A stretch of DNA of 41,127 bases from an uncultured Saprospiraceae bacterium (lineage in GTDB: Bacteria > Bacteroidota > Bacteroidia > Chitinophagales > Saprospiraceae). A model generated the notes under the pieces. The model made no database searches and was not told the DNA's origin. It saw nothing but the letters and a program-made list of their open reading frames with translations. Below are positions 2,189 to 28,438 of this stretch, piece by piece. Position numbers and translations under genes: made by a program. Position 1 is the stretch's first letter. Each line of letters opens with the position of its first letter. The DNA lies in the NCBI GenBank assembly GCA_964445895.1, contig CAYUNA010000001.1, positions 1-41,127 of the forward strand. The letters are read 5' to 3'.

Positions 2189-3067
2189 CTACCGTTTCAG
2201 AAATGCCGTAATCTCCATTGCCGCCGAAGCCACCGCCAATTTTCCATCAGATTTGTTAATAGCATCCAAAACCTTCGTAAAAATCAAATGCTTAGTACCA
2301 CGACGTTTCTTGAAGTCCACCACATAACGCAAGGTAAACGTTATCCAATTTTCATCAAAAGCCATCGTCACCATTGGAGCAACTTGGGCATTTTCCACCA
2401 TTAGCTTTTCGGTCATTTTTGCCCAATCTTGTTCGGCTGCTTTGGCAAAATCTCCATTCACTTCATTAAGTATTTCTGTGAATTTTTGTCGGGCATATTC
2501 GTAATCACCTTCCGTTTTGATGGGAATGGTCACTTCATCCCAGAGAAACGGAAAATCACCCGAATAGTTATAGACAGGCTCTTTGAAAATAAAACTGTTG
2601 GCGATACGCACAATTTTACCATTATAAAGGTCGCCATTGACCCAATCGCCAATCTGCATCATCGAAGTACGCAAAACGCCAATATCTACTACATCGCCCT
2701 TGATACCGCCGAGCATCACACGGTCGCCTACCTTGTAGAAGTTAGAAAAATTAATGGCAACGAATCCCGCGATACTGGCAATGACTTCCTGCAAGGCGAA
2801 GGCGATACCTGCACCCGCAACCCCTAAGAAAACGGTCAATCCTGATAACTGGCTACTGTAAATCACCATTATCATCAGCGCAATTAGAATGTAACCGATG
2901 TAGCCAACAAATTTCCTGATTTTGTAGCGGCTATTGGTTTCTTTGACGTAACGGGGAATAATATTTTTAACCAATCCCGTGATGGTAAAAATGATAAATG
3001 CGCCGATGATAACCGCCGCTAATTTTTGGAAAGTCGGGTCTTCAAAATATGCTGTAAATTCTTCCAT
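2189..3067 (-). CDS. Small MscS-family mechanosensitive channel
   Basis: 292 aa. N-terminal TM helices are followed by an MscS beta-domain-like VGDRVMLGGIKGDVVDIGVLRTSMMQIGD. Confidence 0.85.
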   Translation of the reverse strand: MEEFTAYFEDPTFQKLAAVIIGAFIIFTITGLVKNIIPRYVKETNSRYKIRKFVGYIGYILIALMIMVIYSSQLSGLTVFLGVAGAGIAFALQEVIASIAGFVAINFSNFYKVGDRVMLGGIKGDVVDIGVLRTSMMQIGDWVNGDLYNGKIVRIANSFIFKEPVYNYSGDFPFLWDEVTIPIKTEGDYEYARQKFTEILNEVNGDFAKAAEQDWAKMTEKLMVENAQVAPMVTMAFDENWITFTLRYVVDFKKRRGTKHLIFTKVLDAINKSDGKLAVASAAMEITAFLKR

Positions 3068-3092
3068 GATTAATCGTTTTTCGTTTTAAAAT

Positions 3093-4724
3093 CTATGCTT
3101 CGTTTGTAGGTTTATTAGTAGAATTATCCACCTTAAACGCAGGTGCTTTGTAATCTTTCTTCAAGTAATTTTGCGGCACTGCCATCTGATTACCATCCCG
3201 TACCGCCATATAATGCGACGACATAATCTCCAAGCCTGCTTCATTAAACACATCCTGAATATTGGCGTGAAGATTAGAATAAATTTTGGAAATTTTATGA
3301 CTATCTTTGGTATAAACGTTCAACTCATACGCCACATACCAATCATCAAGGCTTTTTTGTAGTACAAAGGGCTTGGGTTCTTTCTCTACTAAATCCGTTC
3401 TCAAAGCTGCATCTTCCAACAACTGATGAACTTGTGTCCAGGGGACATCGTAACCAATAGTGATAGTCGTTGGCAAAATTAAGCCTTGTTCCTCTGCCAA
3501 AGTAGAATAATTGACGACACCACCGCCTAATAGGATGGCGTTGGGAATAGTGGTTTCTTCATTCTTGGTTGTCTTTACCCTGGTGACTAATAAATTCCGA
3601 CTAATGACGCTACCCGAAATATTGTTGATTTTCACAAAATCACCGATTTTGAAGGGGCGCATATATGTTAAAATTACACCCGAAATCACATTGCTAATTA
3701 TCCCTGCTGACCCTAAAGAAAGGAGCAGACCAATAAAAACGGAAACTCCTTGAAACGCATCCGAACCAGAGCCGGGCAAATAAGGGAAGATGATAACTAA
3801 AGTGAAAATGATAATCAAGACCCGAAATAAATTGAAGGTCGGAAATGCCCAATCGGGGAAAAATCCATTGACTTTGATGCGCTCCGTTTTGATTTGAATG
3901 GCGAAGTAGCCCAAGCCTTTTATCAGGTATTTGACAGCAATAATAATGATAAAAATAAAGAGTAAATTAGGGAGAAAGCCAACAAAACTATCTGCCAAAA
4001 ACCGTAGCGGTCGCAAGACATATCCCATTAGCTTTTCGCCAAAACCTCTCGTGTAGGAAATTTGGCTAAACATGAAAGGCAGATAGAAATAAAGGAAAAC
4101 ACCAATTGCTGTAAAGCGGGTCATTCGCAGCAGAAAAAGTAAAATACCGCGCTCCGTTTCGGGTGTAATAAGTTCAAAGAACTTGACGAATCTGTTGTTT
4201 TGAAAAAAGACATTGTGGGATAAGGTTTTGAGGTTTCGACGGAAATAATCGAAAGTAGAATTGACTATCCATAAGACAATGAGAAAGCCAATCAGAGCTA
4301 AGAAAAAGAGTCCAATATCTTTCCCTAAATTCCCTATCGAAGTATCATTAAAATCATCAATCAGAGCTTTGCGAATGATTCTTTTTTTCGTTTCTGCGAG
4401 TTGTTCTAATGGTTCGTTTGCGGTGGTGGCATCCACTTGGGTAATGGTAGCAATTACCTTTCTGCGGTGCAAAATATCGGCATCTGCGCCCGAAGTGGTT
4501 ATCCTCAAGCTGTCAAATTCCGCAAGCGGTAATTTTGCCAATTGGCGAATATTGCGCTGAATCATTTCTGCCCGTTGCTGCGGCGAAAAGCCCCCGATTT
4601 TGTTTTCGATGATGAATAAAGTATCACCTTTAAACACCACAGGAGCAGGAACATTTTGAGCAGAACCAAGCGTAGCGCAAAGCGCAATCAGCAAAAAAGT
4701 AGATAAGTAAATATAGCGTTTCAT
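3093..4724 (-). CDS. Large MscS-family mechanosensitive channel with periplasmic N-domain
   Basis: 543 aa with a signal peptide and multiple TM helices. MscS-type beta domain FKIGDFVKINNISGSVISRNLLVTRVKTTKNEETTIPN. Confidence 0.85.
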   Translation of the reverse strand: MKRYIYLSTFLLIALCATLGSAQNVPAPVVFKGDTLFIIENKIGGFSPQQRAEMIQRNIRQLAKLPLAEFDSLRITTSGADADILHRRKVIATITQVDATTANEPLEQLAETKKRIIRKALIDDFNDTSIGNLGKDIGLFFLALIGFLIVLWIVNSTFDYFRRNLKTLSHNVFFQNNRFVKFFELITPETERGILLFLLRMTRFTAIGVFLYFYLPFMFSQISYTRGFGEKLMGYVLRPLRFLADSFVGFLPNLLFIFIIIIAVKYLIKGLGYFAIQIKTERIKVNGFFPDWAFPTFNLFRVLIIIFTLVIIFPYLPGSGSDAFQGVSVFIGLLLSLGSAGIISNVISGVILTYMRPFKIGDFVKINNISGSVISRNLLVTRVKTTKNEETTIPNAILLGGGVVNYSTLAEEQGLILPTTITIGYDVPWTQVHQLLEDAALRTDLVEKEPKPFVLQKSLDDWYVAYELNVYTKDSHKISKIYSNLHANIQDVFNEAGLEIMSSHYMAVRDGNQMAVPQNYLKKDYKAPAFKVDNSTNKPTNEA

Positions 4725-4728
4725 ATCT

Positions 4729-5520
4729 TTAGAAATTTACAGAGAAAGCAGAGGTGAAGCGGTGAAACCAATTGTTTATCGGCACAATTGGCGCAACATC
4801 GTAGATGTTTTGATACTGCGTACCCAATTGTAGATATTTGCTAATTTTCCAATTTAAGCCTGTACTACTTGCCAAGCGGGGCGATTGAAAAAATTGGTCA
4901 AAGCGCGGTTGATAGTAAAAACTGGCATCCAAAAAGAACTTTTCCGAGAACCATTTTTTATAGCTAAGGTAAAAGTTCATCCTTACTGTTTTTTGCGTGA
5001 TGGGTGAAGTATCTGGCGGTCGCAATTCATCTTTTACGCCGTTGTAATTCCATTTTTCATATTCATAGAATCCACCCAATCCAGCAAAAAGCCCCGCTTT
5101 GGCATTTCTCAAAAAGGCATATCGCAGATTCGCACCAACCGCATTTTTAAACTGTAAACCCCTTGCATCTGCCCATTGAATTTGCGCGAAGTATTCGGGG
5201 ATTAGTCGCCCATTTTTATTGCTTTTCCACTTGGCGAACACATAGCCACCACTTAACGCCGTTTGGTCGCCAATTGCGGTAAATTCCGTTTTTTGGGCAA
5301 GGGTCAGACTGTTGTTCTTCAGCCGAAAAACCAAATCCGTTACGCTACTGATTTCCACGAATAATTCTTTTTGTGTTTGTATTTTGACTTCAGGGGAAAA
5401 CGACCCCTTGAAATTCTTAGTAGAATCCAACAAGACCACAAAATTTTCGGGGAAAATGATTTGAGCATTTCCTTTCGGTAATAGAAAATAGCAGCAACAT
5501 AGAATTAGAAAATATTTCAC
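4729..5520 (-). CDS. Putative outer-membrane beta-barrel protein (DUF481-like guess)
   Basis: Signal peptide MKYFLILCCCYFLLPKGNAQ, amphipathic beta-strand pattern and aromatic C-terminus ...AFSVNF. Only a 4-nt gap separates it from the downstream MscS gene (3093-4724), so they are probably co-transcribed. Confidence 0.6.
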   Translation of the reverse strand: MKYFLILCCCYFLLPKGNAQIIFPENFVVLLDSTKNFKGSFSPEVKIQTQKELFVEISSVTDLVFRLKNNSLTLAQKTEFTAIGDQTALSGGYVFAKWKSNKNGRLIPEYFAQIQWADARGLQFKNAVGANLRYAFLRNAKAGLFAGLGGFYEYEKWNYNGVKDELRPPDTSPITQKTVRMNFYLSYKKWFSEKFFLDASFYYQPRFDQFFQSPRLASSTGLNWKISKYLQLGTQYQNIYDVAPIVPINNWFHRFTSAFSVNF

Positions 5521-5615
5521 TTAAAGTTCGTTAATTAACAAAAATCGCAATATAATTAAAGTATCAACGTATTTAGTAAAAACTGTTTTGAAACTCCATA
5601 TTGTATCAATTTATT

Positions 5616-6584
5616 TTATAGTTTTTCGCTGCAATTATGGCAATAAGTAGCATTCGTATGGTGTTCCTCCTGTCCGCAGTTGCTACATTCTTTAGAGATT
5701 ACTTCCTTCAAATTCATCACCCGACCGCTAATTTCAGCCGTCACGATGCCCGTAGGGACGGCAATAACGCCGTAGCCCATAATCATCACCGCCGTAGCCA
5801 AAAATTTTCCAAAAGGTGTGATTGGCGTAATATCGCCATACCCGACGGTAGTAAGAGTAACAATCGCCCAATAAATCCCCTTCGGGATGTTGTTTAGATT
5901 GGGATTGGTGTTGCCCTCCACAATGTAAAGCAAAGAGCCAATTATCATCGCCATCAGAATCACGAAGGTAATAAAAACCGAAATTTTGGTGCGGCTTGCC
6001 CGCAGCGCACTTAAAATTACATTGCCCTCTGATACAAAATGACCCATCTTGAAAATCCGAAAAACACGAAGCAAACGCAATGCCCTAACGATGATTAGGT
6101 TCTGCGCTCCAATAAAAAAGATGCCCAAGTAAGACGGGATAATTGCCAGTAAATCTACGATACCAAAAAAGGAAGTAGCGTAAGCCAACGGATTTTTGGA
6201 ACTATACAAGCGTAGCACATATTCGACCGTAAAAATAATGGTAAACAGCCATTCCAAGACAAAGAAAATCCACCAATGCGCCTTTTGAAACTCCGATACC
6301 GTTTCCAACATAACAATCAAAATGCTGATGGAAATTAGCCAAATTAACACCTTATCGAATCGGCGACCCGTTTGGGTATCGTTTTCAAAAATGACGTTGT
6401 GAAGGTAAGCTCTCTGCTTGCTGTTAATGCGCCTGTCCAACTGCTTTTTACCCCAAGCAGCAAAAGCAAAAACCCACGCTTTCAGCTTGTAAGGAGTGGC
6501 GATAATAATGCCTTTCAGGAAATGGTAAAATCGGACTATCTGCCGAATTATCCACCGTCCAAATTGTTGTAATTTATTTTTCAT
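5616..6584 (-). CDS. Voltage-gated-type K+ channel with C-terminal CxxC-x11-CxxC tail
   Basis: The ORF track (5616-6665) begins at TTG. The internal ATG at 6582-6584 (MKNKLQQF...) lies 22 nt below a promoter-like motif. S4-like RALRLLRVFRIFK and pore TTVGYGD. Confidence 0.85.
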   Translation of the reverse strand: MKNKLQQFGRWIIRQIVRFYHFLKGIIIATPYKLKAWVFAFAAWGKKQLDRRINSKQRAYLHNVIFENDTQTGRRFDKVLIWLISISILIVMLETVSEFQKAHWWIFFVLEWLFTIIFTVEYVLRLYSSKNPLAYATSFFGIVDLLAIIPSYLGIFFIGAQNLIIVRALRLLRVFRIFKMGHFVSEGNVILSALRASRTKISVFITFVILMAMIIGSLLYIVEGNTNPNLNNIPKGIYWAIVTLTTVGYGDITPITPFGKFLATAVMIMGYGVIAVPTGIVTAEISGRVMNLKEVISKECSNCGQEEHHTNATYCHNCSEKL

Positions 6585-6606
6585 TTGAGATTGTCTTTCG
6601 CTTTTA

Positions 6607-6636
6607 AGAAAGACTGGATTTTGAAGATTGGTCACG
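6607..6636 (-). promoter_or_regulatory. Bipartite motif copy G (CGTGACC-N15-GTCTTTCT), candidate ECF-type promoter of the K+ channel gene
   Basis: Read on the minus strand. Spacing is the same 15 nt as in the 6 other copies. It lies 22 nt upstream of ATG 6584. Both half-sites carry one mismatch. Confidence 0.4.
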
Positions 6637-6715
6637 GAAAAAATTATGATTATTCTATCGTTCAAATGGAATTATTTCTTATATTTAATAGTTGATGAGT
6701 AAAAACATATAATTT

Positions 6716-8569
6716 ATGAGGTTAGGAACGATTAGCAATCCCAATGAAGTTATCCATCGCAAAGTAAACCACTTTTACGATTACATCCATTATCTGCTTG
6801 ATAACAACAGAGATAGAGTAAAATATTCGGGAGAAAACCACTTAACACTATTAGAAAGAATAGCGAATAGAGTAGAAAATTGCTCTCTTAATCCTTCTAC
6901 CAGGAATCTGATAGAAACCTATCTAAATAATCCACTGTTTAACTGCAAAAGTGACCGATTAGCGCGAAAAGGAAAATTGAAAAAAGTGCTGTGTGAATTG
7001 AAAACTATTCATAAAAAATCTTCTTTTACTAATCCTGATTTTAAACAAAAATTGCATGAAACCATAGAAGTCCTAAACGGTTCAGATTTACTGAATGGCG
7101 AACTTTACTTTCAAAAAGTCTTAGAAAACTTAGTCAAAATGTTGCGGTGTGATTGTTCATTGGGAAAACACAAAGACGACATAGAATATTACGCAAAACT
7201 GCTGGTTTTTGAGTTTTTGAGAGTTGATTATGAGAAAAAGCATTTGGTTGGTCTTCGTGGTTTCTTTTATCGAATCTTATCAAAAGAAACAGATTTGACC
7301 GATAGAGAGAATGATAATATTTATTCAGAATTTCCCCTCCCTCCTGCTATCGAAGCCAATCGTAACCAACCCGGATTTAAAAAAGAAGTAGAGGAATATT
7401 TAAATAGCTTGGATTTCCAAAAGCAATTTGGAGGATTATCCACTTTATTCAAGAAAGAAAAAACGGGTAAAGTCATATATAAAGTCAAATACGTCAGCGA
7501 AGTACATGAGGACTTCGATGTAACGCATGAAGGTGTTAGATTTTTTCACCGAAGTCGTCTTTCCGTAAATTTAGACCATTGGAAAGACTATCAAATAGAA
7601 GATTTGAACGAGTTTATTGACGAAAAATTCACTTGCTTGGCAGAAGTAGAATTGAATTTTAAAATCGAATCTATTGGACGACAAAAAGCAATTGTCAAAA
7701 TCAAAGAAGCAATTGAATTTTTAAATTATGTTGGAAAAGACTATGATTCTTTTAAACACGGGGCAATTTTAGATATGTCCAAAAGTTACATTTTCTATGA
7801 TACTAATGGAAATTTCCAATGGGATGCCGAAAGCATTCAAGTATCTAACCAACTGGCAAATCGGCGTTTATCAGCTCTTTATCCCGATGAATTTTATGCT
7901 TTCCCCTTCGCTACTCAAAAGACAATCAAATGGGCAGATAAAAGCATTTTTAGGTCAAATTCAAGTGCTATTTTGGAAGATAAAATTGTTTATTTGTGGC
8001 GATTTTTAGAGTGTATTTTCGCCCATCTTCCGATGAATAAGGGAGATGACATAAAGAAAAAGGTTAGTTCTGCGCTACTCACAAAATACGCTGAAAAAAG
8101 GAAGCAGTATCTATCCCTTTTCATAGGAAATGCAGCACACAACTCTGACCACAAAACGCTTAATATATCTATTACTCCAAATGAATTAAGAAAGAGACTC
8201 CATAAGATTCACAAAGACGATGAAGATATTTTGACGCTAAGTGAATTTATTGATTACCCCTTTTTAAATGAAAAATTTGCAGACTACCAATATATGGAAA
8301 AGCCCATCGACTATCAAGATGCGCACGATTATTATAGTATGGTCATGAAAGAAGCCCACGAACAACGTAATTCGATTCTTCACCAAGGAGTTTCTTGCTA
8401 CTCGACCCTAAAAAAACTAAATTCTTGTTTGTTCAATCTCATCATTCGTTTTCGTCGTGCTATTATGGAGCAATTGATTGAGAATCCTACATTGAGCATT
8501 GAGGATGCTATTGAGCAATTACATACAGAAGGTATTAGCTATTTGCCAAAAAAAAGGTTAGAGCAATGA
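6716..8569 (+). CDS. 617-aa cytoplasmic protein with C-terminal HEPN-type Rx4H motif (putative RNase/Abi-like)
   Basis: Long ATG-initiated ORF with no TM or signal peptide. EAHEQ-RNSILH-QG at aa 551-556 (nt 8366-8383), an RN...H arrangement typical of HEPN active sites. The rest is unrecognised. Confidence 0.7.
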   Translation: MRLGTISNPNEVIHRKVNHFYDYIHYLLDNNRDRVKYSGENHLTLLERIANRVENCSLNPSTRNLIETYLNNPLFNCKSDRLARKGKLKKVLCELKTIHKKSSFTNPDFKQKLHETIEVLNGSDLLNGELYFQKVLENLVKMLRCDCSLGKHKDDIEYYAKLLVFEFLRVDYEKKHLVGLRGFFYRILSKETDLTDRENDNIYSEFPLPPAIEANRNQPGFKKEVEEYLNSLDFQKQFGGLSTLFKKEKTGKVIYKVKYVSEVHEDFDVTHEGVRFFHRSRLSVNLDHWKDYQIEDLNEFIDEKFTCLAEVELNFKIESIGRQKAIVKIKEAIEFLNYVGKDYDSFKHGAILDMSKSYIFYDTNGNFQWDAESIQVSNQLANRRLSALYPDEFYAFPFATQKTIKWADKSIFRSNSSAILEDKIVYLWRFLECIFAHLPMNKGDDIKKKVSSALLTKYAEKRKQYLSLFIGNAAHNSDHKTLNISITPNELRKRLHKIHKDDEDILTLSEFIDYPFLNEKFADYQYMEKPIDYQDAHDYYSMVMKEAHEQRNSILHQGVSCYSTLKKLNSCLFNLIIRFRRAIMEQLIENPTLSIEDAIEQLHTEGISYLPKKRLEQ

Positions 8570-8582
8570 CTTCGCTCTAACC
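8556..8582 (+). terminator. Hairpin overlapping the stop codon of 6716-8569
   Basis: 9-bp stem ggttagagc / gctctaacc with a 9-nt loop. No clear T-run. Confidence 0.35.
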
Positions 8583-8617
8583 TCCATGAAATTTAATAAA
8601 TCACCTATTATGTAAAC

Positions 8618-8776
8618 TTATTTCTTCTTCTTTGCCTGTGGCACTAAAGATTTTCCCTTGTGTGCTGGGTTTGCAGCACCAGGTTTAGCGTTTGCAGTTC
8701 GAGCAGCTTTGCGTTTTGCTTTTACTGCTTCTGCATTCTTTTTTGCTTCGGTTCTTTTTTGTACTTTCGTTTTCAT
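8618..8776 (-). CDS. Possible 52-aa highly basic small protein (not in ORF track)
   Basis: ATG 8774-8776 to TAA 8618-8620. Translation: MKTKVQKRTEAKKNAEAVKAKRKAARTANAKPGAANPAHKGKSLVPQAKKKK. Lys/Ala-rich. It could be spurious. Confidence 0.3.
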   Translation of the reverse strand: MKTKVQKRTEAKKNAEAVKAKRKAARTANAKPGAANPAHKGKSLVPQAKKKK

Positions 8777-8800
8777 AATTGTAATAAGTTTTTAAGTATC

Positions 8801-8834
8801 GGGGCAAATGCAGCCTGACTGATTCATTTGCCCC
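8801..8834 (-). terminator. Hairpin downstream of the 89-aa gene
   Basis: Perfect 10-bp stem ggggcaaatg / catttgcccc with a 14-nt loop. No T-run on either strand. Confidence 0.4.
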
Positions 8835-8853
8835 TCTACACTATGAAATTTGG

Positions 8854-9123
8854 TTAGGCTACGGCTGCTTTTGGCGCAGGCGCGTTATTTTTTTCGTTGT
8901 TGACCCGCATTTTGTAGTCTTCTAATACTTCCGACATAATGGCGTAATCTGCAGATGCTCGCGTTGCGAAATCTTCCATTGCTTTTTCTAATTCTTTGTC
9001 GGGAGCATTGAATAAATCTACTTGGACGTGTCCAATTTTTTCAGCCAAACTTTCTTGGCTATTTACGATATCTTCCAATTTTTGTTGGAAGTCTTCCATG
9101 ATTTCAATTTTAGATTTTTCCAT
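8854..9123 (-). CDS. 89-aa acidic helical hypothetical protein
   Basis: The ORF track gives 8854-9249, but its 5' part runs through a promoter-like motif. ATG 9121-9123 gives MEKSKIEIMEDFQQKLEDIV..., 46 nt below motif copy F. Confidence 0.6.
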   Translation of the reverse strand: MEKSKIEIMEDFQQKLEDIVNSQESLAEKIGHVQVDLFNAPDKELEKAMEDFATRASADYAIMSEVLEDYKMRVNNEKNNAPAPKAAVA

Positions 9124-9169
9124 GATGGCAATTTTTATTTTAGTTTTTAATGTTGTGCCTAAAAGCGAG

Positions 9170-9199
9170 ATAAAGACTGCTAATAAAAAATTGGTCACA
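9170..9199 (-). promoter_or_regulatory. Bipartite motif copy F (TGTGACC-N15-GTCTTTAT)
   Basis: Exact match to both half-sites on the minus strand. It points at ATG 9123. Confidence 0.5.
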
Positions 9200-9259
9200 C
9201 CTAATTCAGCATTTTTTTTTAATAATTTTTCTACGCAAAAAGGCTGCATACTAAGAACC

Positions 9260-9267
9260 TATCTTTG
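9260..9267 (+). promoter_or_regulatory. Possible Bacteroidota -7 box (TATCTTTG) for 9338-10117
   Basis: Matches TAnnTTTG, about 70 nt upstream of the ATG at 9338. Confidence 0.3.
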
Positions 9268-9337
9268 CATTATTAAAGAAACCTATTTTCTAAATAGAAA
9301 TATCCTTATTAGCAGGAATCAAAAAAACACTTGAAGC

Positions 9338-10117
9338 ATGCCACTACAAATTAACAAGAATGCCCTCAAACGCCCTTTGGAAAAAATGTTGACAGAATGT
9401 TCCAACGCCGTATTTATTGGATTGGCTGCAACTAAAGATTTAAAAGATTCTCCAGAGTTTTTGATGGGGCAAGACAATTTTCAGATGTACAGCCCATTTT
9501 TTCAGAAAATGCCATTAGATAAAAGCAAATTATATTTTCAAAACTGGGTTGTAAAAAAAGGAGTAGAAGATTTGATAAAAGGAGTGTTTTCGATGTTGAT
9601 TGAAGTTGTCAAAACCATTAAAAAGGTAGAAGCTATCAAAGAGATAAAGCCGACAAGTTTAGAAGAATTGGAAGGCATTCTGAACGACCCATTTAGTAGG
9701 GTGGACAAAAAATCATTTCCCAATTTAATTGACCTAATTAAACCGTATTTGAATGAAGAAATGACCTATTTAAATGAAATTAAATCTATTAATCGAATAA
9801 GACGATGCTTGGTTCATCGGGATGGGTTAGTTACATCAATTGACGTTCAAGAGGGAGAGGAAAATTTAGTCCTTTTATGGAGAAAACCAGAAGTGACTTA
9901 TGAAGCAAGTGGACAACAAAAACCTTTAGGCTTTGGAGCATTATTGACTGGTGATATGCCGCCTCTTAATCTTAGCTTTAATCAAAAAAGAAAAGAATTT
10001 AAACTCAATGAATCTATTGAAATTGATTACGAACTTTTTAATGAAATTATATGGACTTGTCAGTTGTTTGGGGATAATTTGATTGCTAATTTAGACTTTG
10101 GACAAGTAAAAAAGTAA
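9338..10117 (+). CDS. 259-aa hypothetical protein with Rx4H (HEPN-like) motif
   Basis: ATG-initiated ORF. INRIR-RCLVH-RDG at aa 155-160 (nt 9800-9817). Its stop codon is only 8 nt from the stop of the convergent 1411-aa gene. Confidence 0.65.
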   Translation: MPLQINKNALKRPLEKMLTECSNAVFIGLAATKDLKDSPEFLMGQDNFQMYSPFFQKMPLDKSKLYFQNWVVKKGVEDLIKGVFSMLIEVVKTIKKVEAIKEIKPTSLEELEGILNDPFSRVDKKSFPNLIDLIKPYLNEEMTYLNEIKSINRIRRCLVHRDGLVTSIDVQEGEENLVLLWRKPEVTYEASGQQKPLGFGALLTGDMPPLNLSFNQKRKEFKLNESIEIDYELFNEIIWTCQLFGDNLIANLDFGQVKK

Positions 10118-10125
10118 GATTTCTA

Positions 10126-13100
10126 CTACTTTACACAGAGTCCGTTTTCACTATGTTCTGAAGTCAAGAATGATACATCAGCGTATTCATTTTGCAATAC
10201 TAAAATATGGCATCTTCTTGTGGTATCATCACTATTTTGTGTTTTAAAATTGATTATTGCCTGTACGCTTTTACCAACCAAAGTTGTATTATCTATTTCA
10301 CTATCATCGGGCAATATTGATTTCAATTTATCAAAACCAAAATCTACCATAACTTCAATTAATCCAGCTTGATAAACAGGTTTAACAGATATAATAGTTC
10401 CCGTTCTGATGTCCAGTTTTGCGAAATCTTCTAATTGAATCTGTGGTTTGATAGTCGCCACGTTTGTTTTGTACCAGACTTCTAATATTTCAAAAAGAAT
10501 CTCGGTCTGAAAATGAGTCTGCTGGGAAAGATAACGAAAAGACCGGAAAATTAGATTTGGGAAAAAATTAGTAATTAAGACAGACATAATCTCATGGATG
10601 GCTTTAATTTTTTTATCTTCAGTTATAGACTTAGCCATAATGAGTCGATTCATAAAGTGAAATACTTTCAATAAACTATGCCCGTAGTTGTTTGTGTTGA
10701 GTTCAAAAAAATGATGACAAACCTTAAAATTATCTAATCGAATTGCTGCATACAAAACATCTTCTTTTACAGCAATATTCTTGTAATTTAGTTGTAATAA
10801 TTTGACCAATTTCTCGTTCAAAAAATCATGACTAATCATTTCATTATTTTGTTTTTGAAATTTTATTAAATCAACCGTTCCAAGTGCCTTTATTCCGAGG
10901 TCATTTTTTGTAACTTCTCTAAAAACATAATCATCAGATAACAAAACAAAATTGTTTTCCTGAGCGATAAGAACTGTATCATAGAAGCTGTTTTCATAAA
11001 TTTCTACCTTTCTTTGATGTTCTTCTATTCTGCCTTCTTTTCTAAGATTAACAGGCGACGGCGGGTGGCAATACTTTTCTACAAAAGAAAGTAAGTCTGT
11101 AAAATATTTGAGTGTCGCTTCTTTTTCTTTTCTTGTTTTTTCATATCTGAATTCCTGTCCATCTTTTTCAATAATCTGAAAAGAATTCTGCTTCAACTCC
11201 TCTTCTTTTTGGATAAGTAAGTTTTTTACAAGTTCCAAAGTAGAGTAAGAGATGTGTATTTTACCATAAAAAGTATTAATCCATTGCCCCAATTCTAAAT
11301 GATGAAGGGCTAAAATTGAAGTAACATCGCAGCAAAATTCCACGTTTGCATTTTTAAGATGCAAAAACACTTCTACGGTTTCCTCTTCAAATCCAGAAGA
11401 ACAGTTGATTCCAATTGATTCATCATTAATGAATTTGTGCCACAATAGAATTGGGTTGATATTTTCATAGAAAGCAACAAAGCCAAGAGGGACATTACTT
11501 TTTCGATAAAAACTATGTACTTGCTCAACAGCTTCCTGACGCTTTCTGTTTTGTTCTAAATTTTTATCCAAGAATGTTTTTATAGACTCCAAACCATTGC
11601 CTATCACTATTTTCAAATTTGGGTCATCACTAAATTTTCCACCTAACAATTCGATACTTTGCAGAAAAGCATAGTGGTCTTTGGTCAAAATCTTACTGAC
11701 TCTAACCGTTTGTTCTACATTTAAGAAATTATTCTCACCCCAAGGGATAATATCTCCGACTTTTTTTGCTTTTAACTTTTCAAATAAAGGGTCGCTGACG
11801 TTTATCTCATGCCTTGCTTTATTCGCATCAACTCTATTCTCAATTATGTAAGTGATTTGAAAAGCGTTCTCCTTTTCTAAAAACACTACAGTATCTAATC
11901 CAACTTCATTAACTCTTAACTCTTCCTTCGTCTGATTGATTTTTGTACTAATGAAAACATAAGCCTGATGCGCTTCTGCTGTGTCAAATAAGCGGCGCAT
12001 TTCATAGACAAGGTTTAATACTTCTGCCTTTTTGCCTACCTGAAGCAGCATCGAAGCAATTCTTTGCACTGAAAAAACAGAAAGTTGTGCAAGTGGTATT
12101 TTCTGAATTTTTGATAAAATATCCTTTGTTTCTTCCTCCAGATAAAAAGTCAACTCTCCAAGTCTTAGCAACATTTCCACATCCTCTTCATAAGTGCTGC
12201 AATACAATTTCATTAAATCGAATGCCGCTCGAAAATCTTTGATATAGACATACGTATTGATTAACTCTTTGGTCAAATAAGTTGTTATGCCTATAGCCTC
12301 ATAAGACTCTTTGCAATGCGCAATTACTTTATTAAAATTACCACTTTCTTTGTAGCAATGAATTAAGCATTCAGATAAATAACTTGGTTCTGCTGGCGAC
12401 AAGAATTTTTCAAAGATTACGACGGCTTCAGCAAATTTTTCAGATTCCATTAGTGATATGGCCAATTCACTTAATTCAGTATCTGTGGTGTTTTCGTCAA
12501 TTAGATTGAGTGCTTCCTCTGCATATTGATTGACCTTTTCAAATTCTTCTTTGGCAAAAGCCAATCTCCCTTTGAGAGCTAATACAGAAATACAAACAGG
12601 TGCTTTTTCTAACAGACTATTCATTTTTTCTAACCTATTACAAGATAAATAAAGGTTTGACAAGAAATGTATAGCTCTATCTATTAGAAGTGAATCGGGA
12701 TGATTTTTAATGAATTTTTCTAATCTTGAAATAGCTTCTTCTTGATTTTCAGGTTTATAAGTGTTAAAAAGAGACTCTGCAAAAATCATCAAGACATCGT
12801 GATAATCGGGATGCGTAAAATCATTTATTTCTCTGCACATTTGTATCAAATCATCCTGTTTTCCCCATTTTTTTAAGAAGTAAATTTTTTGACTATACAA
12901 TGAGGGGGTCTCTTCTACATTTAAGGCAACATCTATCCACTTAATAGCTTCCTCATAAAGTCCTAACGCTGAATATACCGTGCTAATATTGATAGGCATT
13001 CCTATAAATTCCTTGTTCAAATCCGTGTTTCCATGTACTTCCCATACTTCTTTATACAATTTAATGGCTAAGCGTAAATCGCTCTTTTTATATTCTGGGA

Positions 13101-14361
13101 TAAAAGTTTCCTTTACGGAGTGAAACCTAGAGGAATAAGTGTACGAAATGTTGTAAGCTAAAATTGGTTTGTATAATAAGCCATTGTCATCACGATTAGC
13201 AATGGCTTTCAACATATAAATTTTGTATTTCTCAATATTATCTTTCCTTAAATATGCTTTTGCAAGAGAATAATTCAACTCTGAATTGCTGATTAAATTA
13301 GTAGGCAGATTATCAATAACATCTTCGATATTACAATTTTCTTCATTTAATTGAATGACAAAATTTTGTAAGGTATTCGGATGATGAAGTTTTAATTCTT
13401 CACTCAATTCCTCCGCTTTTTCAGGTTGATTGAGCATTCTATATCCTACTAATGCTTGATAAATAGCGTTAGAAGAATTAGGGGCATAAACCAATGCCTC
13501 GATATAGTTTTGACCTGCTACCTGAAATTTCCCTAAGCGCTCCCTTGACTTGCCAAGATTCCCGATAGTCAAAAACATCAATTTATTATCATTAACCTGG
13601 TCACGTTCCAATTTTGATTTCAATTCTAAAAGAACCTGTTCTGCTTTGTAGTAATTTTGAATTTTTAGTAATTCCAGACCTTCATTTAGTCTATCTTTAT
13701 ATTCAGCAATTAAGCTATTTACAAAATCCTCTGTTTTCGACTTACTGATTGCTTCTAACAGTCTATTTTCCATCTGCACCAAGCCATTATTTACTCCACC
13801 TATTGCCTCTCTGGTAGCTTCAACACCGATAGAAATTTCATCCAATTTTCTCCTCTGTCCATCAATATTAGCCCGTATCTGTTCAATTACTTCATGTGAC
13901 TCAAAAACTTGATATAAAAGCACATAAATACCTTGCCTTTCAGATAATTGATTAAACAAAGTCTCTTGAAAACCTGATAAAGCGTTACGAATTAGTCTCT
14001 GCGCCAATTTGCTATCAATAGATTGACTGTGTTCTTCATCCAAAATTTTTAAAAAATTCTGAATCAGTAATTCGATAAAATCAGGCTTTGTCAGGGCTTC
14101 TCGAAAATTAGATACATTCTGAATATTTAAATTGAAGAGAGCTACTAACCTTTTTCGTTCTAACCGAACAAGCCATTCTAATTGTTGTAAAGTTGTTTTT
14201 TCACCTGCCTTTACTTTTGCCTTTTCGTCACTTAAACATTTTTGGAAAGAATTATAAAATACATTTTCTAACTGACTAACCGCTCCAAATGCTGTGAGTT
14301 TTTTAACCCAACTTGAAAAACCTGCAATGTTGCCAAATGTAAATTTGAATATCTCAAGCAT
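10126..14361 (-). CDS. 1411-aa multidomain protein: N-terminal coiled-coil, TPR-like array, GreA/B-C-like, PIN-like, C-terminal tRNA-binding (Trbp111/CsaA-type OB)-like
   Basis: Single uninterrupted ORF. aa ~815-895 TYIIENRVDANKARHEINVSDPLFEKLKAKKVGDII aligns by eye to the GreA C-domain ([31 protein letters not shown]). aa ~1005-1165 EFCCDVTSILAL...LLSDDYVF...GTVDLI shows PIN-like acidic residues. aa ~1305-1405 LEDFAKLDIRTGTIISVKP...VDFG...LVGKSVQAIINFK resembles the tRNA_bind OB. Confidence 0.9.
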   Translation of the reverse strand: MLEIFKFTFGNIAGFSSWVKKLTAFGAVSQLENVFYNSFQKCLSDEKAKVKAGEKTTLQQLEWLVRLERKRLVALFNLNIQNVSNFREALTKPDFIELLIQNFLKILDEEHSQSIDSKLAQRLIRNALSGFQETLFNQLSERQGIYVLLYQVFESHEVIEQIRANIDGQRRKLDEISIGVEATREAIGGVNNGLVQMENRLLEAISKSKTEDFVNSLIAEYKDRLNEGLELLKIQNYYKAEQVLLELKSKLERDQVNDNKLMFLTIGNLGKSRERLGKFQVAGQNYIEALVYAPNSSNAIYQALVGYRMLNQPEKAEELSEELKLHHPNTLQNFVIQLNEENCNIEDVIDNLPTNLISNSELNYSLAKAYLRKDNIEKYKIYMLKAIANRDDNGLLYKPILAYNISYTYSSRFHSVKETFIPEYKKSDLRLAIKLYKEVWEVHGNTDLNKEFIGMPINISTVYSALGLYEEAIKWIDVALNVEETPSLYSQKIYFLKKWGKQDDLIQMCREINDFTHPDYHDVLMIFAESLFNTYKPENQEEAISRLEKFIKNHPDSLLIDRAIHFLSNLYLSCNRLEKMNSLLEKAPVCISVLALKGRLAFAKEEFEKVNQYAEEALNLIDENTTDTELSELAISLMESEKFAEAVVIFEKFLSPAEPSYLSECLIHCYKESGNFNKVIAHCKESYEAIGITTYLTKELINTYVYIKDFRAAFDLMKLYCSTYEEDVEMLLRLGELTFYLEEETKDILSKIQKIPLAQLSVFSVQRIASMLLQVGKKAEVLNLVYEMRRLFDTAEAHQAYVFISTKINQTKEELRVNEVGLDTVVFLEKENAFQITYIIENRVDANKARHEINVSDPLFEKLKAKKVGDIIPWGENNFLNVEQTVRVSKILTKDHYAFLQSIELLGGKFSDDPNLKIVIGNGLESIKTFLDKNLEQNRKRQEAVEQVHSFYRKSNVPLGFVAFYENINPILLWHKFINDESIGINCSSGFEEETVEVFLHLKNANVEFCCDVTSILALHHLELGQWINTFYGKIHISYSTLELVKNLLIQKEEELKQNSFQIIEKDGQEFRYEKTRKEKEATLKYFTDLLSFVEKYCHPPSPVNLRKEGRIEEHQRKVEIYENSFYDTVLIAQENNFVLLSDDYVFREVTKNDLGIKALGTVDLIKFQKQNNEMISHDFLNEKLVKLLQLNYKNIAVKEDVLYAAIRLDNFKVCHHFFELNTNNYGHSLLKVFHFMNRLIMAKSITEDKKIKAIHEIMSVLITNFFPNLIFRSFRYLSQQTHFQTEILFEILEVWYKTNVATIKPQIQLEDFAKLDIRTGTIISVKPVYQAGLIEVMVDFGFDKLKSILPDDSEIDNTTLVGKSVQAIINFKTQNSDDTTRRCHILVLQNEYADVSFLTSEHSENGLCVK

Positions 14362-14521
14362 ATTTTTATCTATATTTTTTGTAAAAATATGTTTTTCAAT
14401 AGAAAATCGTCACTAATTAGCTTGATGAATCAAAAATTAATCTCGTTCATTTTTATTACGGATAGAAAATTGAGGTTCTTTATGGCTAAAAATTTCATAT
14501 TCTTTTGAGTAAAAAAGGGTT

Positions 14522-14734
14522 TAATTTTATCAGGAATATTTACGATTTAGACAAAGGTTTTCCAAAAGAAACCTCTGGCTCTTTCATTAGAATACTTTAT
14601 TTAGTTGCCAGTACCATCACTACTTTAGAATTGGGAGATATTTACCCAATTAGCGATTGGGCGCGTTTTGGGTAATTATTGAAAGTATTTTAGGCGTTGT
14701 TATAATAAGAATTGGCATCAGCCATTTTTTTTAA
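14522..14734 (+). pseudogene. Degraded K+-channel pore fragment
   Basis: One frame reads ...SFIRILYLVASTITTLELGDIYPISDWARFG*, a pore helix plus a degenerate TTxGxGD filter. After a frameshift it continues VIIESILGVVIIRIGISHFF (inner helix). There is no start and no TM1. Confidence 0.35.
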
Positions 14735-14803: not shown

Positions 14804-15538
14804 TCACTCTTTAGGTTTAATTATCCTCCGTGTCCCAATCTTAATATTCACAAATTCCACCAACACCGCAAACGCCATAGAAAAATAAATATAGCCTTTG
14901 GGAATATGGAAATCTATGCCTTCTGCAATTAGAGCAGTCCCAATCATCAACAAAAAGGAAAGGGCTAAAACTTTCACAGCAGGATGTTTATTGACAAAAT
15001 TGCTCAAAGCAGTTGCCGCTAACATCATTATGCCTATTGCTACCACTACCGCAGCAATCATTATTTCCAAGTGCTTTGCCATACCGACAGCGGTAATCAC
15101 AGAATCGAAAGAAAAGACGATATCAATCAGGATAATTTGTAGGACGATATTTTGAAACGTGACTTTTTGGGCAGAAGAAATTATGGGAGATGCTTCATTT
15201 TCTGCGGCCTCCATCTTATCGTGTATTTCCATCACACTTTTATAAATCAAGAATAACCCACCTAAAATCAGGATAATATCACGCCCCGAAATCCCCATTT
15301 CTCCTACTTGGAAAAGGTCTCTGGTCAGTCCCATAATCCATGAAATCGAAAAAAGCAAACCTATCCTGGTCAGCAGAGCCAAACTCAATCCGACCTGTCG
15401 AGCCTTCGCCTGTTGTTGCTGGGGAAGTTTATTGGCCAGTATTGAAATAAAAATCAGGTTGTCTATGCCCAAAACGATTTCTAGAGCACAAAGCGTTAAA
15501 AATGAAGTCCAAATATCCGGGTTTGTTATCCACTCCAT
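14804..15538 (-). CDS. TerC-family integral membrane protein
   Basis: 244 aa and polytopic. LEIVLGIDNLIFISILANKLP and the second repeat DIVFSFDSVITAVGM are typical of TerC/YjbE. Confidence 0.9.
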   Translation of the reverse strand: MEWITNPDIWTSFLTLCALEIVLGIDNLIFISILANKLPQQQQAKARQVGLSLALLTRIGLLFSISWIMGLTRDLFQVGEMGISGRDIILILGGLFLIYKSVMEIHDKMEAAENEASPIISSAQKVTFQNIVLQIILIDIVFSFDSVITAVGMAKHLEIMIAAVVVAIGIMMLAATALSNFVNKHPAVKVLALSFLLMIGTALIAEGIDFHIPKGYIYFSMAFAVLVEFVNIKIGTRRIIKPKE

Positions 15539-21513: not shown

Positions 21514-23070
21514 TTAAAAAGGATAAATAACGATATTTTCATTAAGCGTATCCACATTATTATTCTTTTGTTCTTTTTGGAATACAGGTATAGAAATGCT
21601 TAGTTTATAAACTAAAAAATGAATGCAGTAATCGTTATTTTCATGCAATGTGGGCAAAGAAATTTGAAAATCAATTGGATGTTCCTCTGCATGAGTATTA
21701 ATAGTGTCTGATTGAAGATGAAAGTTATTTACTATTTCTTTTCGATTGTCACCTTCAATACAGATTAATTTGAAATATTCATTAAAATTAGCTGGTGAGA
21801 TAAAAATTCTCTTGGTTGGATGTAAATTTTTGATTGTTCCCTTAATTTTCGTCTTATCTTCTGACAATTCAAAAGATAGCTCAATGCCCCGATTTACTTT
21901 ATTATTCCATTCGTCAATCGAATAAAACATTTTCCCAAGCATACTTCTAATTAATCGGTAGTTATCGGAAAACGGATTAACTTCAAAATAGTGTAGCCCA
22001 GTCTGGAGCATCTCTTTTTGCTTTAAAGACTCTAACCAAATGCTATTTTCCATAGCCGTTTCAATCCTTCTTACTGCTCGCCTATTTTCTTCCAGAGAAA
22101 CGGAAAAAGGCTTAGATTTTAAGCCCTCATAAGCACCAGTTACATTTCGTTGCTCACTTTCTTCCCCTTTCCTGTAAGCAGGTATATACTTTTTTATCCA
22201 TTTTAAATAATGTATTGAGTTAAACGAATTTGGGTTTAAAGGGTCGTCCTCCTCCAACTCTTTAGAGGTATGAAACGCACACAGGCATCTTTCAAAATGA
22301 AGAATTACCCAATTTTCAAAACTGCGGCAGGAATAAGCTACATTGATATAATCCTTCCACGTAGCATCAAGTTCTCCTTCTTCGCCGCCAGCGTAATCAA
22401 ATTGTTGATTATTATAAAAAAGTGCTGTGGGGTCTGCATTATTCAAATCTTCAAACTCTTGACGTTTATCTGTTAGTTGAATAACCATATTTTGCTCATC
22501 AGTAATATGACAGGTCGTTTCAAGAAAACGCTGATAGTCCAATTTGGACAGAAAGCAACAACCCCTATATGCTTTTATTTGATTGAATGTAGCAGCATCA
22601 AGCCTGTTCTGCATTCTATTTAAAGTGTTCTCTGTGATTTGATAACTGTTACAATCGTCGTTATCAATCACTATCCATATTTCGTCGTATGGATTCTGCT
22701 CTTCTTCATTTTTCTCATCCTCTTCTCTTTTTAGCTCCATCGCCTTCCAAATCATTCCTTTGAGGCTGTTATCTATCAACTCATTATTTTCTTTTTTGTG
22801 GGATTGGGTAATGACTTTTATTTCAACTGCTGACAGTTTTCTGCTTAGTACTAAATTTGATTTTAATCCTTCAAAATAGGATTTTTCTGTTGGTCCTTCA
22901 CAGATAATCAAAAAACGTTTTGCGGGTAGTTGTACTTTTTCTTCGTCGCGCAATTTGGCACCGTCAGGTATAACAAAAACTGGAACATCCTTTTTCTGTT
23001 TTTCTGCTTTCAACTCTCGCTTTTGGGTTTGCTTCAATTCTCGCCTTTGCTGCTTTTTTCTTTTACTCAT
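21514..23070 (-). CDS. RloB-like (Toprim-related) protein, AbiLii-like, extended (518 aa)
   Basis: RFLIICEGPTEKSYFEGLKS matches the RloB CEGxxTExxYF signature. IWIVIDNDD is a DxD-type acidic motif. It has a Lys/Arg-rich N-terminus and ~170 extra C-terminal aa. Overlaps the upstream ATPase gene by 8 nt. Confidence 0.85.
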   Translation of the reverse strand: MSKRKKQQRRELKQTQKRELKAEKQKKDVPVFVIPDGAKLRDEEKVQLPAKRFLIICEGPTEKSYFEGLKSNLVLSRKLSAVEIKVITQSHKKENNELIDNSLKGMIWKAMELKREEDEKNEEEQNPYDEIWIVIDNDDCNSYQITENTLNRMQNRLDAATFNQIKAYRGCCFLSKLDYQRFLETTCHITDEQNMVIQLTDKRQEFEDLNNADPTALFYNNQQFDYAGGEEGELDATWKDYINVAYSCRSFENWVILHFERCLCAFHTSKELEEDDPLNPNSFNSIHYLKWIKKYIPAYRKGEESEQRNVTGAYEGLKSKPFSVSLEENRRAVRRIETAMENSIWLESLKQKEMLQTGLHYFEVNPFSDNYRLIRSMLGKMFYSIDEWNNKVNRGIELSFELSEDKTKIKGTIKNLHPTKRIFISPANFNEYFKLICIEGDNRKEIVNNFHLQSDTINTHAEEHPIDFQISLPTLHENNDYCIHFLVYKLSISIPVFQKEQKNNNVDTLNENIVIYPF

Positions 23071-24415
23071 GATTTTGGAAAATTTCAGAGTTTTTCACAC
23101 GAGAAATGATTACATCATGCTGAATACTCGGAATCCCACCAAATCGGCCTGATAAATACCATTTTTGAAAAGGACTGTTGCTTCTGACTCCACTAAACTC
23201 GGAAATTGGATAGACTTCGGTTGCATTGTATTCATTCTTTTGAAAAAGAAAGATTTGGTCTCGGCTGAAAACGTCAGCACTAAGTAAAGAAGGGTCGTGG
23301 GTAACAAAGATTAATTGAGCATTGTTGGGATTTGAATCTTCATTATGAAAGAATCGAATTAAAGATTCAGTTATGCGAGGATGGAGGCTTTTATCCAATT
23401 CGTCAATTAATAGAACATCTCCTGATTGTAACGCAGATAAAATTGGAGGAAGCAAACTTAGAAACTTATTTGTTCCTGTGGATTGTTCGCTTAGTGGTAG
23501 GGTATCTGTTCCAATTTCATTTTCGCCATCAAACATTCGATGTTTTATTTTTATCCTGAATTTTAACCTATCCAAAAGGTCATTTTCTATTCTCCTTTTT
23601 TCTTCTTCTGGGAATCCATCTGGAAACTCAACGGTTGGTAAAGCCCCATCTTTTCCAACATCAATACCAACGATAGAACTGTCTAACTGCATTATTAGAT
23701 TTTCAATTAATCTACCAACAGGCGAATTGATATTTTCGGACAGAAATTTACCTAAAGTACTCATTTGAATCTCGTTATACCCCTCTCCTGAAAAACTAAA
23801 CCAATCTAAGTGCTTTGAAAAGAATAAATAAACAGGAATGAGTTGCTCGTGCGCTTGATTAACTGCTTCTGACAAGAACAGTTGATTAGGCAGTAATATT
23901 TCTTCTATTTGCTTTTTCTTTCCTCTGAAAGTTTCCCCGAACCTCATAGCAGTACCTTCTTCACGAGTATAGAGTTTCACCTGTGATACTCGCGTTTTTC
24001 CCTCAATCGGGTAATAACTCAATTCTTCCTCAATAATTTTTTCCCGATTAAATTTTACATAGTATTGATAACGTAAATCATTAGGAGCAATAAATTCAAT
24101 GTTAAATATTGTCGGGGATTTGCGGGTTTTAAGGTCGAAATGAAAAACTTCATTTGCTTCGAGCGAGTCTCCTGGTTGAAATCTATTTGATTTTTCAACT
24201 ATCCACTTAAATGCTTTAAATGCTCTGAGAAAGTTACTTTTTCCAGCATTATTCGCTCCATATATAACGGCTGAGTTGAGCGTATATAATTTATCGTATT
24301 TTTTGCTTCTGGAAGGCATGTTCGGTCGCTCTCGCACATTTTTAGAAGGAATTAGATTGAGTGTTTGAGTTTCTTTTATTGACCTAAAATTAGTAACAGA
24401 AAAAGATAGTAGCAT
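23063..24415 (-). CDS. ABC-type AAA ATPase (AAA_15/AAA_21-like), AbiLi-like
   Basis: MLLSFSVTNFRSIK..., Walker A GANNAGKSNF, signature-like SEQSTGTNKF, Walker B VLLIDELDKSLHP and H-loop region LIFVTHD. Confidence 0.9.
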   Translation of the reverse strand: MLLSFSVTNFRSIKETQTLNLIPSKNVRERPNMPSRSKKYDKLYTLNSAVIYGANNAGKSNFLRAFKAFKWIVEKSNRFQPGDSLEANEVFHFDLKTRKSPTIFNIEFIAPNDLRYQYYVKFNREKIIEEELSYYPIEGKTRVSQVKLYTREEGTAMRFGETFRGKKKQIEEILLPNQLFLSEAVNQAHEQLIPVYLFFSKHLDWFSFSGEGYNEIQMSTLGKFLSENINSPVGRLIENLIMQLDSSIVGIDVGKDGALPTVEFPDGFPEEEKRRIENDLLDRLKFRIKIKHRMFDGENEIGTDTLPLSEQSTGTNKFLSLLPPILSALQSGDVLLIDELDKSLHPRITESLIRFFHNEDSNPNNAQLIFVTHDPSLLSADVFSRDQIFLFQKNEYNATEVYPISEFSGVRSNSPFQKWYLSGRFGGIPSIQHDVIISRVKNSEIFQNHE

Positions 24416-26200: not shown

Positions 26201-26243
26201 TCTTTTTTTGAAAAAATTTAATTTTCATGTTTTTTTATTTCCT

Positions 26244-26251
26244 TACTTTTG
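26244..26251 (+). promoter_or_regulatory. Bacteroidota -7 box (TACTTTTG) for the ParB-ATPase operon
   Basis: Matches TAnnTTTG, 22 nt upstream of ATG 26274. This supports 26274 over 26208 as the start. Confidence 0.4.
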
Positions 26252-26273
26252 CTTTTTTCATAAAAAAACTTTT

Positions 26274-28427: not shown

Positions 28428-28438
28428 TCATCATTCCT

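Follow-up and report, generated by a model that had tools for sequence, protein, structure and literature searches.

Putative RNA-targeting immune genes in low-GC segments of a Saprospiraceae contig: an ApeA-like protein, a TGP protein with a tRNA-binding tail and an orphan Arg/His-motif protein

In the DNA of an uncultured Saprospiraceae bacterium (Bacteroidota), three genes designated A, B and C occupy positions 6716-14361 between a K+ channel gene and a TerC gene, and the question raised by this locus is whether they constitute one multi-gene RNA-targeting conflict system, a set of separately acquired immune modules, or part of the ordinary gene complement of the lineage. The stretch that was analysed, here called the window, comprises positions 1-41,127 (forward strand) of contig CAYUNA010000001.1 (assembly GCA_964445895.1), for which a sequence-only reading had proposed the first of these answers, with two separate insertions as a fallback. 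All three open reading frames (ORFs) are present where that reading had placed them, namely gene A at 6716-8569 (+ strand, 617 amino acids), gene B at 9338-10117 (+ strand, 259 amino acids) and gene C at 10126-14361 (- strand, 1411 amino acids). That the interval represents conflict DNA with RNA-directed effectors has stood, two of the three genes falling in defence families (ApeA-like and TGP) of which other members have experimental support; that it encodes a single system has not. Since A and B lie on the + strand and C, together with two small genes, on the - strand, the three genes do not form one operon; the block comprises at least three transcription units, and homologues of each gene occur without the others. 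The reading favoured here, which we regard as probable although far from assured, is that the block represents two low-GC insertions (A on one side, B and C on the other) around core-like small genes, carrying three single-gene immune modules which act independently. It draws on the domains found in A and C, on the conservation of motifs, on homologues that occur apart from one another, on a compositional mosaic and on a defence-rich context, each of which was observed directly.

The sequence-only reading had assigned a HEPN motif to A, and this is borne out by the conservation of R551-N552-x3-H556 and by a profile alignment to the HEPN region of ApeA. In an alignment of 81 members of the A family, R551, N552 and H556 are the sole invariant columns (family motif EQRNxxxHxG), and the corresponding codons (R551-N552-S-I-L-H556, 8366-8383 on the + strand) specify the presumed HEPN catalytic motif, which is invariant in 81/81 sequences and aligns to LRNTIVH of Ec4ApeA. 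Considering that A contains five Rx4-6H matches where approximately 3.3 would be expected by chance, it is the conservation, and not the bare motif, which counts as evidence. A search of the PDB with the 81-sequence profile retrieved Ec4ApeA (9hxm) with E=1.4e-7 across chain residues 259-518, encompassing the Mid and HEPN regions, with a weaker stretch in the N-terminal part; in this alignment YWxxLE corresponds to YWSALE, and YEQRNfiiH to YLLRNTIVH. A word-indexed search returned two homologues of A (38-40% identity), and an exhaustive profile search of 1.84 billion representatives returned a family of 249 representative clusters at E<=1e-3, nearly all members of which are 560-620 amino acids long and align from end to end.

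ApeA is a single-protein HEPN anti-phage system which forms doughnut-shaped oligomers; ligands that bind in a pocket remote from its active site switch it on, and it cuts tRNA in the anticodon loop (bioRxiv 10.64898/2026.01.26.701840); in another study, ApeA was reported to cleave RNA-phage genomes without killing of the cell (bioRxiv 10.64898/2026.03.20.713152). A resembles ApeA in its size (617 amino acids as compared to 619 for Ec4ApeA), in its C-terminal HEPN with an invariant RNxxxH, and in that its homologues are found as single genes in mobile or defence settings. It differs in that members of the family are not matched by the Pfam and PADLOC models (A itself having no match in Pfam, PADLOC, NCBIfam or PHROG), and in that Ec4ApeA is the only significant match among the structures of Ec1-Ec4ApeA and Thr1ApeA. 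As judged from sequence, A represents a distant ApeA-like family and not a demonstrated ApeA. By analogy with ApeA, it would probably form a dimer or oligomer through its C-terminal HEPN and would probably remain inactive until an infection-derived ligand fills a pocket distant from the active site; following activation, RNA would be cut with R551, N552 and H556 as the catalytic residues.

A separate observation concerns the assembly of this gene: in three further assemblies of this organism the contigs are interrupted within A, two of them ending exactly at 7654 and one at 7708 (a 55-bp overlap), all being 100% identical to the window. These breaks at 7654-7708 look like an assembly-graph branch in the middle of A (due, for example, to strain variation or a shared k-mer), and no second copy of the 7654-7708 segment is present within the window.

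Gene C encodes a member of the TGP (TPR-GreAB-C-PIN) proteins, in which a constant core of TPR, GreA/B-C and PIN domains is placed behind a variable N-terminal effector or adaptor; these proteins are mostly encoded by standalone genes and have been proposed to act by RNA-polymerase docking and transcript cutting (Kaur et al. 2021, PMC8195603). C appears to display the same core order of TPRs, a putative GreA/B-C-like domain and a PIN domain of the PF20698 family, with a different module in the N-terminal slot, and its homologues are likewise mostly standalone genes in mobile or defence contexts. All domains are given here with their positions on the - strand. The TGP-type PIN nuclease domain (residues 1011-1152, 10906-11331) matches PF20698 (‘PIN domain associated with the TPR-GreAB-C-PIN system’) with E=8.2e-18 and 65.4 bits, against a cut-off of 27.8. 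Across four aligned homologues D1012 and E1135 of this domain are invariant, and the acidic pair D1145/D1146 is represented by D or E; as these acidic residues are conserved, the sequence suggests that the nuclease of C is probably active. Upstream of the PIN domain lies a TPR array (residues ~255-780, 12022-13599), to which several TPR Pfam models match across residues 265-740, followed by a putative, divergent GreA/B C-terminal-like domain (residues ~817-893, 11683-11913), suggested by a profile of four homologues whose five best PDB matches, at E=0.05-0.08, are without exception C-terminal domains of Gfh1 or GreA. The sequence-only reading had described C as TPR-PIN-tRNA_bind; the TPRs and the PIN were confirmed and the tRNA-binding element was recovered at the domain level, and the putative GreA/B-C domain between the TPRs and the PIN had been missed.

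The N-terminal helical module of C (residues 1-250, 13612-14361) is common only to C and to its homologue P0001 (blastp E=1e-30), has no match in Pfam and, as judged by Pfam, is not among the listed TGP effectors or effector-associated domains (EADs). It would occupy the variable effector/adaptor position of TGP, in which another TGP homologue, P0002, carries an HNH-like N-terminus instead. As a lead only, residues 100-197 of C (within window positions 13582-14361) exhibit a weak similarity to RicA/YmcA, which is not significant (E=0.02). In Bacillus, RicA/YmcA belongs to a complex assisting RNase Y.

Besides this module, C departs from TGP as described in its C-terminal tRNA-binding OB domain of the CsaA/Trbp111/YgjH type (residues 1307-1403, 10153-10443), for which matches were obtained in both NCBIfam and the PDB. 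The tail matches the NCBIfam tRNA-binding protein model with E=2.4e-7 over model positions 4-103 of 113, and when the isolated segment was compared to the PDB, all 16 of 16 matches were CsaA, YgjH, Trbp111 or MetRS C-terminal domains (best E=8.4e-5). In the alignment to CsaA, DFAKLDIRTGTII pairs with DFEKLDIRTGTIV. The likeness to CsaA, Trbp111, YgjH and the MetRS C-terminal domain extends over most of the domain and includes the DF-KLDIRTGTI signature; the difference is that in C this domain forms the end of a defence protein that also bears a nuclease, and not a free chaperone, a free tRNA-binding protein or part of a synthetase. The word ‘tRNA’ is absent from the main text of the paper that defines TGP (PMC8195603). 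The aligned homologues P0001-P0003 stop short of the tRNA-binding domain, the tblastn match of C to a homologue on a Nostoc plasmid ends at query residue 1214, and none of the five C homologues examined possesses such an OB domain. As read from its sequence, C is a TGP protein fused to a tRNA-binding domain, and this combination is new.

VapC, PrrC and RloC are tRNA-targeting nucleases, VapC being a PIN toxin. Like them, C joins an RNase to tRNA recognition, which on the basis of domain content suggests translation shut-off by tRNA cleavage; unlike VapC, C is approximately ten times larger, lacks an antitoxin gene, has its tRNA binding on a separate, fused OB domain and includes TPR and GreA/B-C parts. 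If C acts according to the model proposed for TGP, its GreA/B-C-like domain would dock on RNA polymerase, its TPRs would sense or scaffold, and its PIN domain would be the RNase. The simplest reading of the OB tail, by analogy with the cutting of tRNA by VapC PIN toxins, is that it would deliver tRNA to the PIN domain.

For gene B, the sequence-only reading had likewise put forward a HEPN motif, of which the motif proved real and the HEPN fold was left without fold or profile support. Nine homologues of B were found (31-51% identity), and in 10/10 sequences the motif NRxRRCLVHR is invariant (codons N152-R-I-R-R-C-L-V-H160-R161, 9791-9820 on the + strand), the family also sharing E20 and N23 on the first helix. 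H160, located inside this motif, is the single histidine of B, so that an Rx4H arrangement would be expected by chance only ~0.09 times; the spacing R155-x4-H160 (as well as R153-x6-H160) is invariant in 10/10 members of the family. An AlphaFold model of B is confident (predicted local distance difference test, pLDDT, of 83; predicted template modelling score, pTM, of 0.80), and predicts long helices, with the motif at the C-terminal end of helix 145-160, then a three-stranded sheet and a last helix. The order of the helices in this model would be consistent with HEPN topology, which does not amount to a test. As compared to minimal HEPN RNases (HepT, Abi-type), B is similar in its invariant Rx4H on a long helix, its mostly helical content and its size of ~260 amino acids, and one of its homologues adjoins Abi_2; it is dissimilar in the beta-sheet that is inserted after the motif helix and ahead of the final one, and in having no profile or fold match. 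That B is a HEPN-like RNase is possible and is offered here as a hypothesis: B would be a free-standing protein and, on the strength of its invariant Arg...His motif, may be a HEPN-type RNase that needs no metal.

The contexts in which homologues of the three genes occur are separate. Searches for A, B and C yielded 3-10 matches each among 5.8 billion clusters, at 20-51% identity. Homologues of A were located within an integrase/HTH_17 element (L002-L004) and next to an HTH-NTase gene (L011), in each case without a homologue of TGP or B. Those of B occupy four unrelated contexts, never together with A or TGP: one is flanked by YceI and a GIY-YIG gene (L005-L008), another belongs to a defence island that also contains Abi_2, EAD1, Trypsin_2, Endonuclease_NS and HD-PycTM (L012-L014), and two further cases are on short contigs. 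The homologue nearest to C, P0001 (29% identical and with the N-terminal module in common; L001, 1097-9922), starts 24 bp past a same-strand CBASS-like operon consisting of SMODS, Cap2/ThiF, JAB, an EAD11 protein and an NTP_transf_2 protein, which suggests a connection between certain TGP proteins and CBASS-type signalling. Other C homologues lie beside cobalamin genes (L010) and, on the Nostoc plasmid, beside Tn3 (L143). The five TGP loci represent five different neighbourhoods, the sole recurrent neighbour being an A-like gene in two of the five. No relatives of A, B or C were found in viral contigs or in PHROGs, and a search of plasmids returned only the one Nostoc TGP gene.

Base composition sets the three genes apart from their surroundings. 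The G+C content (GC) of A, B and C is 0.343, 0.331 and 0.327, respectively, whereas that of core-like genes of the contig (channel, MscS, TerC, patatin, Usp and others) ranges from 0.40 to 0.46, so that the three genes lie 7-10 points under the neighbouring core genes and per-gene GC is bimodal across the contig. Between A and B are two small - strand ORFs with core-like GC, present as had been described: a Lys/Ala-rich ORF of 52 amino acids (8618-8776, GC 0.409), which is not counted with the defence modules, and an acidic, helical ORF of 89 amino acids (8854-9123, GC 0.389), which separates A from B and C. The two-insertion fallback of the sequence-only reading thereby gains support from composition, in that the arrangement fits two acquisitions, A and B with C, around resident small genes of GC 0.39-0.41.

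The neighbourhood is also defence-rich. An AbiL-type pair at 21514-24415 (- strand, GC 0.34-0.35) consists of AbiLii/RloB (518 amino acids; PADLOC 3e-16, Pfam RloB 7e-23) and AbiLi (450 amino acids; PADLOC 6e-88), the latter being an AAA_21/AAA_15 ATPase. It is followed at 26208-29254 (+ strand) by a candidate system in a low-GC islet, formed by PDC-M38A (a 739-amino acid ATPase; PADLOC 1.9e-269) and PDC-M38B (271 amino acids, DUF3226; 3.9e-79). At 33529-37452 (+ strand, GC 0.31) is a gene for a NACHT/NB-ARC protein of 1307 amino acids, the N-terminal 337 residues of which match PADLOC LmuA (8e-21), and which resembles STAND-type immune proteins, its effector being nuclease-like. The GC of these genes (0.31-0.35) is like that of A, B and C. 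Just upstream of the NACHT gene, at 31238-32904, are two further low-GC ORFs without family assignment.

The origin of the block was also considered by means of its flanking genes. With TerC as an anchor, the best relatives among 185,579 species genomes were 76-78% identical and belonged to metagenome-assembled genomes labelled Saprospiraceae or Flavobacteriaceae, and with the K+ channel as an anchor the best relative in JGI metagenomes was 69% identical. Exact-protein look-ups of TerC and the channel returned only 100%-identical contigs of other assemblies, and an exact look-up of the channel protein with a shorter ATG start returned nothing. No conserved neighbours were detected in the nearest TerC or channel relatives (tblastn with 20 window proteins), and the nearest genomes with TerC or the channel are without A, B and C. 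The source organism has no close sequenced relative in the collections searched.

Among the alternatives, the one closest to the original proposal is that A and C, possibly together with B, are components of one system, in which, for example, TGP would serve as an RNA-polymerase or tRNA sensor and A as a second RNase layer. A finding that speaks for it, and which weighs against the independence of A and C, comes from L009, a locus that was retrieved through C alone, where a member of the A family (562 amino acids; blastp against A E=5e-13, with the motif EAYEQRNxIxH in common) lies ~850 bp upstream of the TGP homologue P0002 and diverges from it. With this exception, hidden Markov model scans of 144 loci (2.05 Mb) found A-, B- and TGP-like ORFs only where these had been targeted, so that ~2 Mb of unrelated loci contained zero A-like or TGP-like ORFs; and as the A family is rare (249 of 1.84 billion), a second chance co-occurrence looks, by informal reasoning, unlikely under a naive model. 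In addition, ApeA targets tRNA and C has a tRNA-binding domain, and there is a precedent for a TGP protein acting with a neighbouring gene, as Agp (a TGP) protects E. coli from T5 through activation of Bab, which is encoded next to it, by way of an amyloid motif that the two share (bioRxiv 10.1101/2024.11.07.622273). Against a joint system it can be said that the A-TGP pairing is confined to the window and L009 and differs in orientation between them (convergent with three genes in between in the former, divergent in the latter), that P0005 and P0006, the homologues nearest to A, and P0001 and the Nostoc protein, those nearest to C, are without the partner within the flanks available, and that the ApeA and TGP families have both been reported as stand-alone. 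Moreover, unlike in the Bab/Agp case, no Bab-like partner of C was found, and a search for an adaptor or amyloid-like motif that the N-terminus of C might have in common with A, with B, with either small ORF or with the EAD11 protein next to P0001 found none. Since defence genes cluster anyway, the proximity of A and TGP is weak evidence, and the homologues of B are never found with either family. A single system is therefore considered distinctly unlikely. A more elaborate proposal, which we consider quite improbable, takes the OB tail of C to mean that the TGP PIN domain either cleaves tRNA or has its activity gated by tRNA, whole or in fragments, that the A-TGP adjacency reflects a two-layer, tRNA-centred defence in which the products, or phage tRNAs, are read by the partner, and that B represents a third, structurally new class of Arg/His RNase. 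As regards L009 itself (2412-13810), two more large uncharacterised genes (1353 and 229 amino acids) are present downstream of dnaE, and the locus may be another defence islet.

The favoured reading of three independent immune modules in two insertions also has to be weighed against several results which, like the L009 pairing, tell against it. For A, the query by itself matched zero PDB chains; with the family profile Thr1ApeA was reached at E=1.6 and no further ApeA chain at E<=10, Ec4ApeA being the only significant structure. None of the 81 members had a relevant match in Pfam or PADLOC at E<=0.01, in copies for which the presence of an ApeA model was unconfirmed by a positive control, and the structure model, built from three sequences, is poor (pLDDT 60.8, pTM 0.39) and gave no meaningful Foldseek match. 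For C, two homologues out of four match PF01272 (best E=4e-7) and C itself does not; as the match of C is not significant on its own and is taken from aligned homologues, the GreA/B-C assignment is transitive and weak. Its OB domain falls below the curated whole-protein cut-offs (NCBIfam 31 as against 117 bits, Pfam PF01588 15 as against 27). The case for two acquisitions has GC as its sole basis, and no empty insertion site was found among the nearest TerC or channel relatives. Furthermore, what the three proteins do, which RNAs they target, what triggers them and that they confer defence are all inferred from domain content and published relatives. As for B, it could instead be a nucleic-acid-binding, regulatory or immunity protein in which the conserved basic Arg/His helix serves another purpose and the resemblance to HEPN is superficial, a possibility that we consider rather unlikely. 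In its support, the confident model of B (pLDDT 83) has no Foldseek match at E<0.1 in the PDB or BFVD, profile searches of the PDB and Pfam were empty for all ten family members, and hhalign gave a probability of 0.45% for an alignment to the A/ApeA-like profile. A typical HEPN motif has a polar Asn, Asp or His after the Arg, and in B this residue is Arg. On the other side stand the placing of the sole His of B in an invariant Rx4H spacing, the helix order of the model, which would fit the HEPN topology described for ApeA (motif on the third long helix, insertion, final helix), and the finding of one B homologue within a defence island. Finally, A, B and C could be ordinary core RNA-metabolism or housekeeping genes of the lineage and not mobile defence genes. 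Consistent with this, three window-identical contigs of other assemblies, each of which overlaps the block in part, exhibit the same arrangement over the stretch covered, and no empty site was found. Yet the three families are extremely sparse and patchy, their homologues reside in integrase elements, on a plasmid and in defence islands, the GC of the three genes is well under that of the core neighbours, and all three are missing from the nearest TerC or channel genomes, so that a core origin appears most improbable.

The features that surround the three genes remain to be described. The position of the block between a K+ channel and TerC was confirmed, the Ion_trans K+ channel (5616-6665) and TerC (14804-15538) both being - strand genes. 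The 89-amino acid ORF between A and B would be 131 amino acids long if started at an upstream ATG; its family matches are all sub-threshold, and the 52-amino acid ORF has zero family matches. A core-regulon promoter motif had been attributed to these small genes; the Bacteroidota-type TAnnTTTG motif has 27 and 29 matches in the window as compared to ~25 expected, i.e. no enrichment, and is absent upstream of the small - strand genes, being present only 78 nt upstream of B. The spacer between C and TerC is AT-rich (GC 0.28) and contains, at 14505-14734 (+ strand), a weak Ion_trans_2 match, which is probably the relic of a decayed small ion-channel gene: it includes a 56-amino acid ORF with a degenerate selectivity-filter-like TTLELGD, and a hydrophobic helix runs on in another frame. 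The idea that this relic is a duplicated piece of the 5616-6665 channel, left as an insertion scar, was rejected, there being no BLAST similarity between the two. Por_Secre_tail proteins, i.e. proteins of the type IX secretion system (T9SS), are encoded near the block. Positions 1-1853 of the window (and 5856-12093 of L097) contain a run of paralogous PKD/Por_Secre_tail (T9SS cargo) genes, mutually ~87% identical, which is probably the reason why the contig ends at the start of the window.

Taken as a whole, the locus adds variants and leads to current ideas on RNA-targeting immunity and does not overturn them. The B family is new as an orphan Arg/His-motif protein whose predicted structure matches no known fold, and since its candidate active site is clear and structural relatives are lacking, it offers a cheap target in the search for a new effector fold. 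The A family appears, from its sequence, to be a new ApeA-like family unrecognised by the Pfam and PADLOC models used here, so that annotation built on those models would miss it; with ~249 clusters, it would extend ApeA-like immunity into Bacteroidota. For the TGP family, the natural fusion to a tRNA-binding domain in C leads to a concrete hypothesis, namely that the PIN domain of these proteins may either act on tRNA as its substrate or respond to it as a signal.

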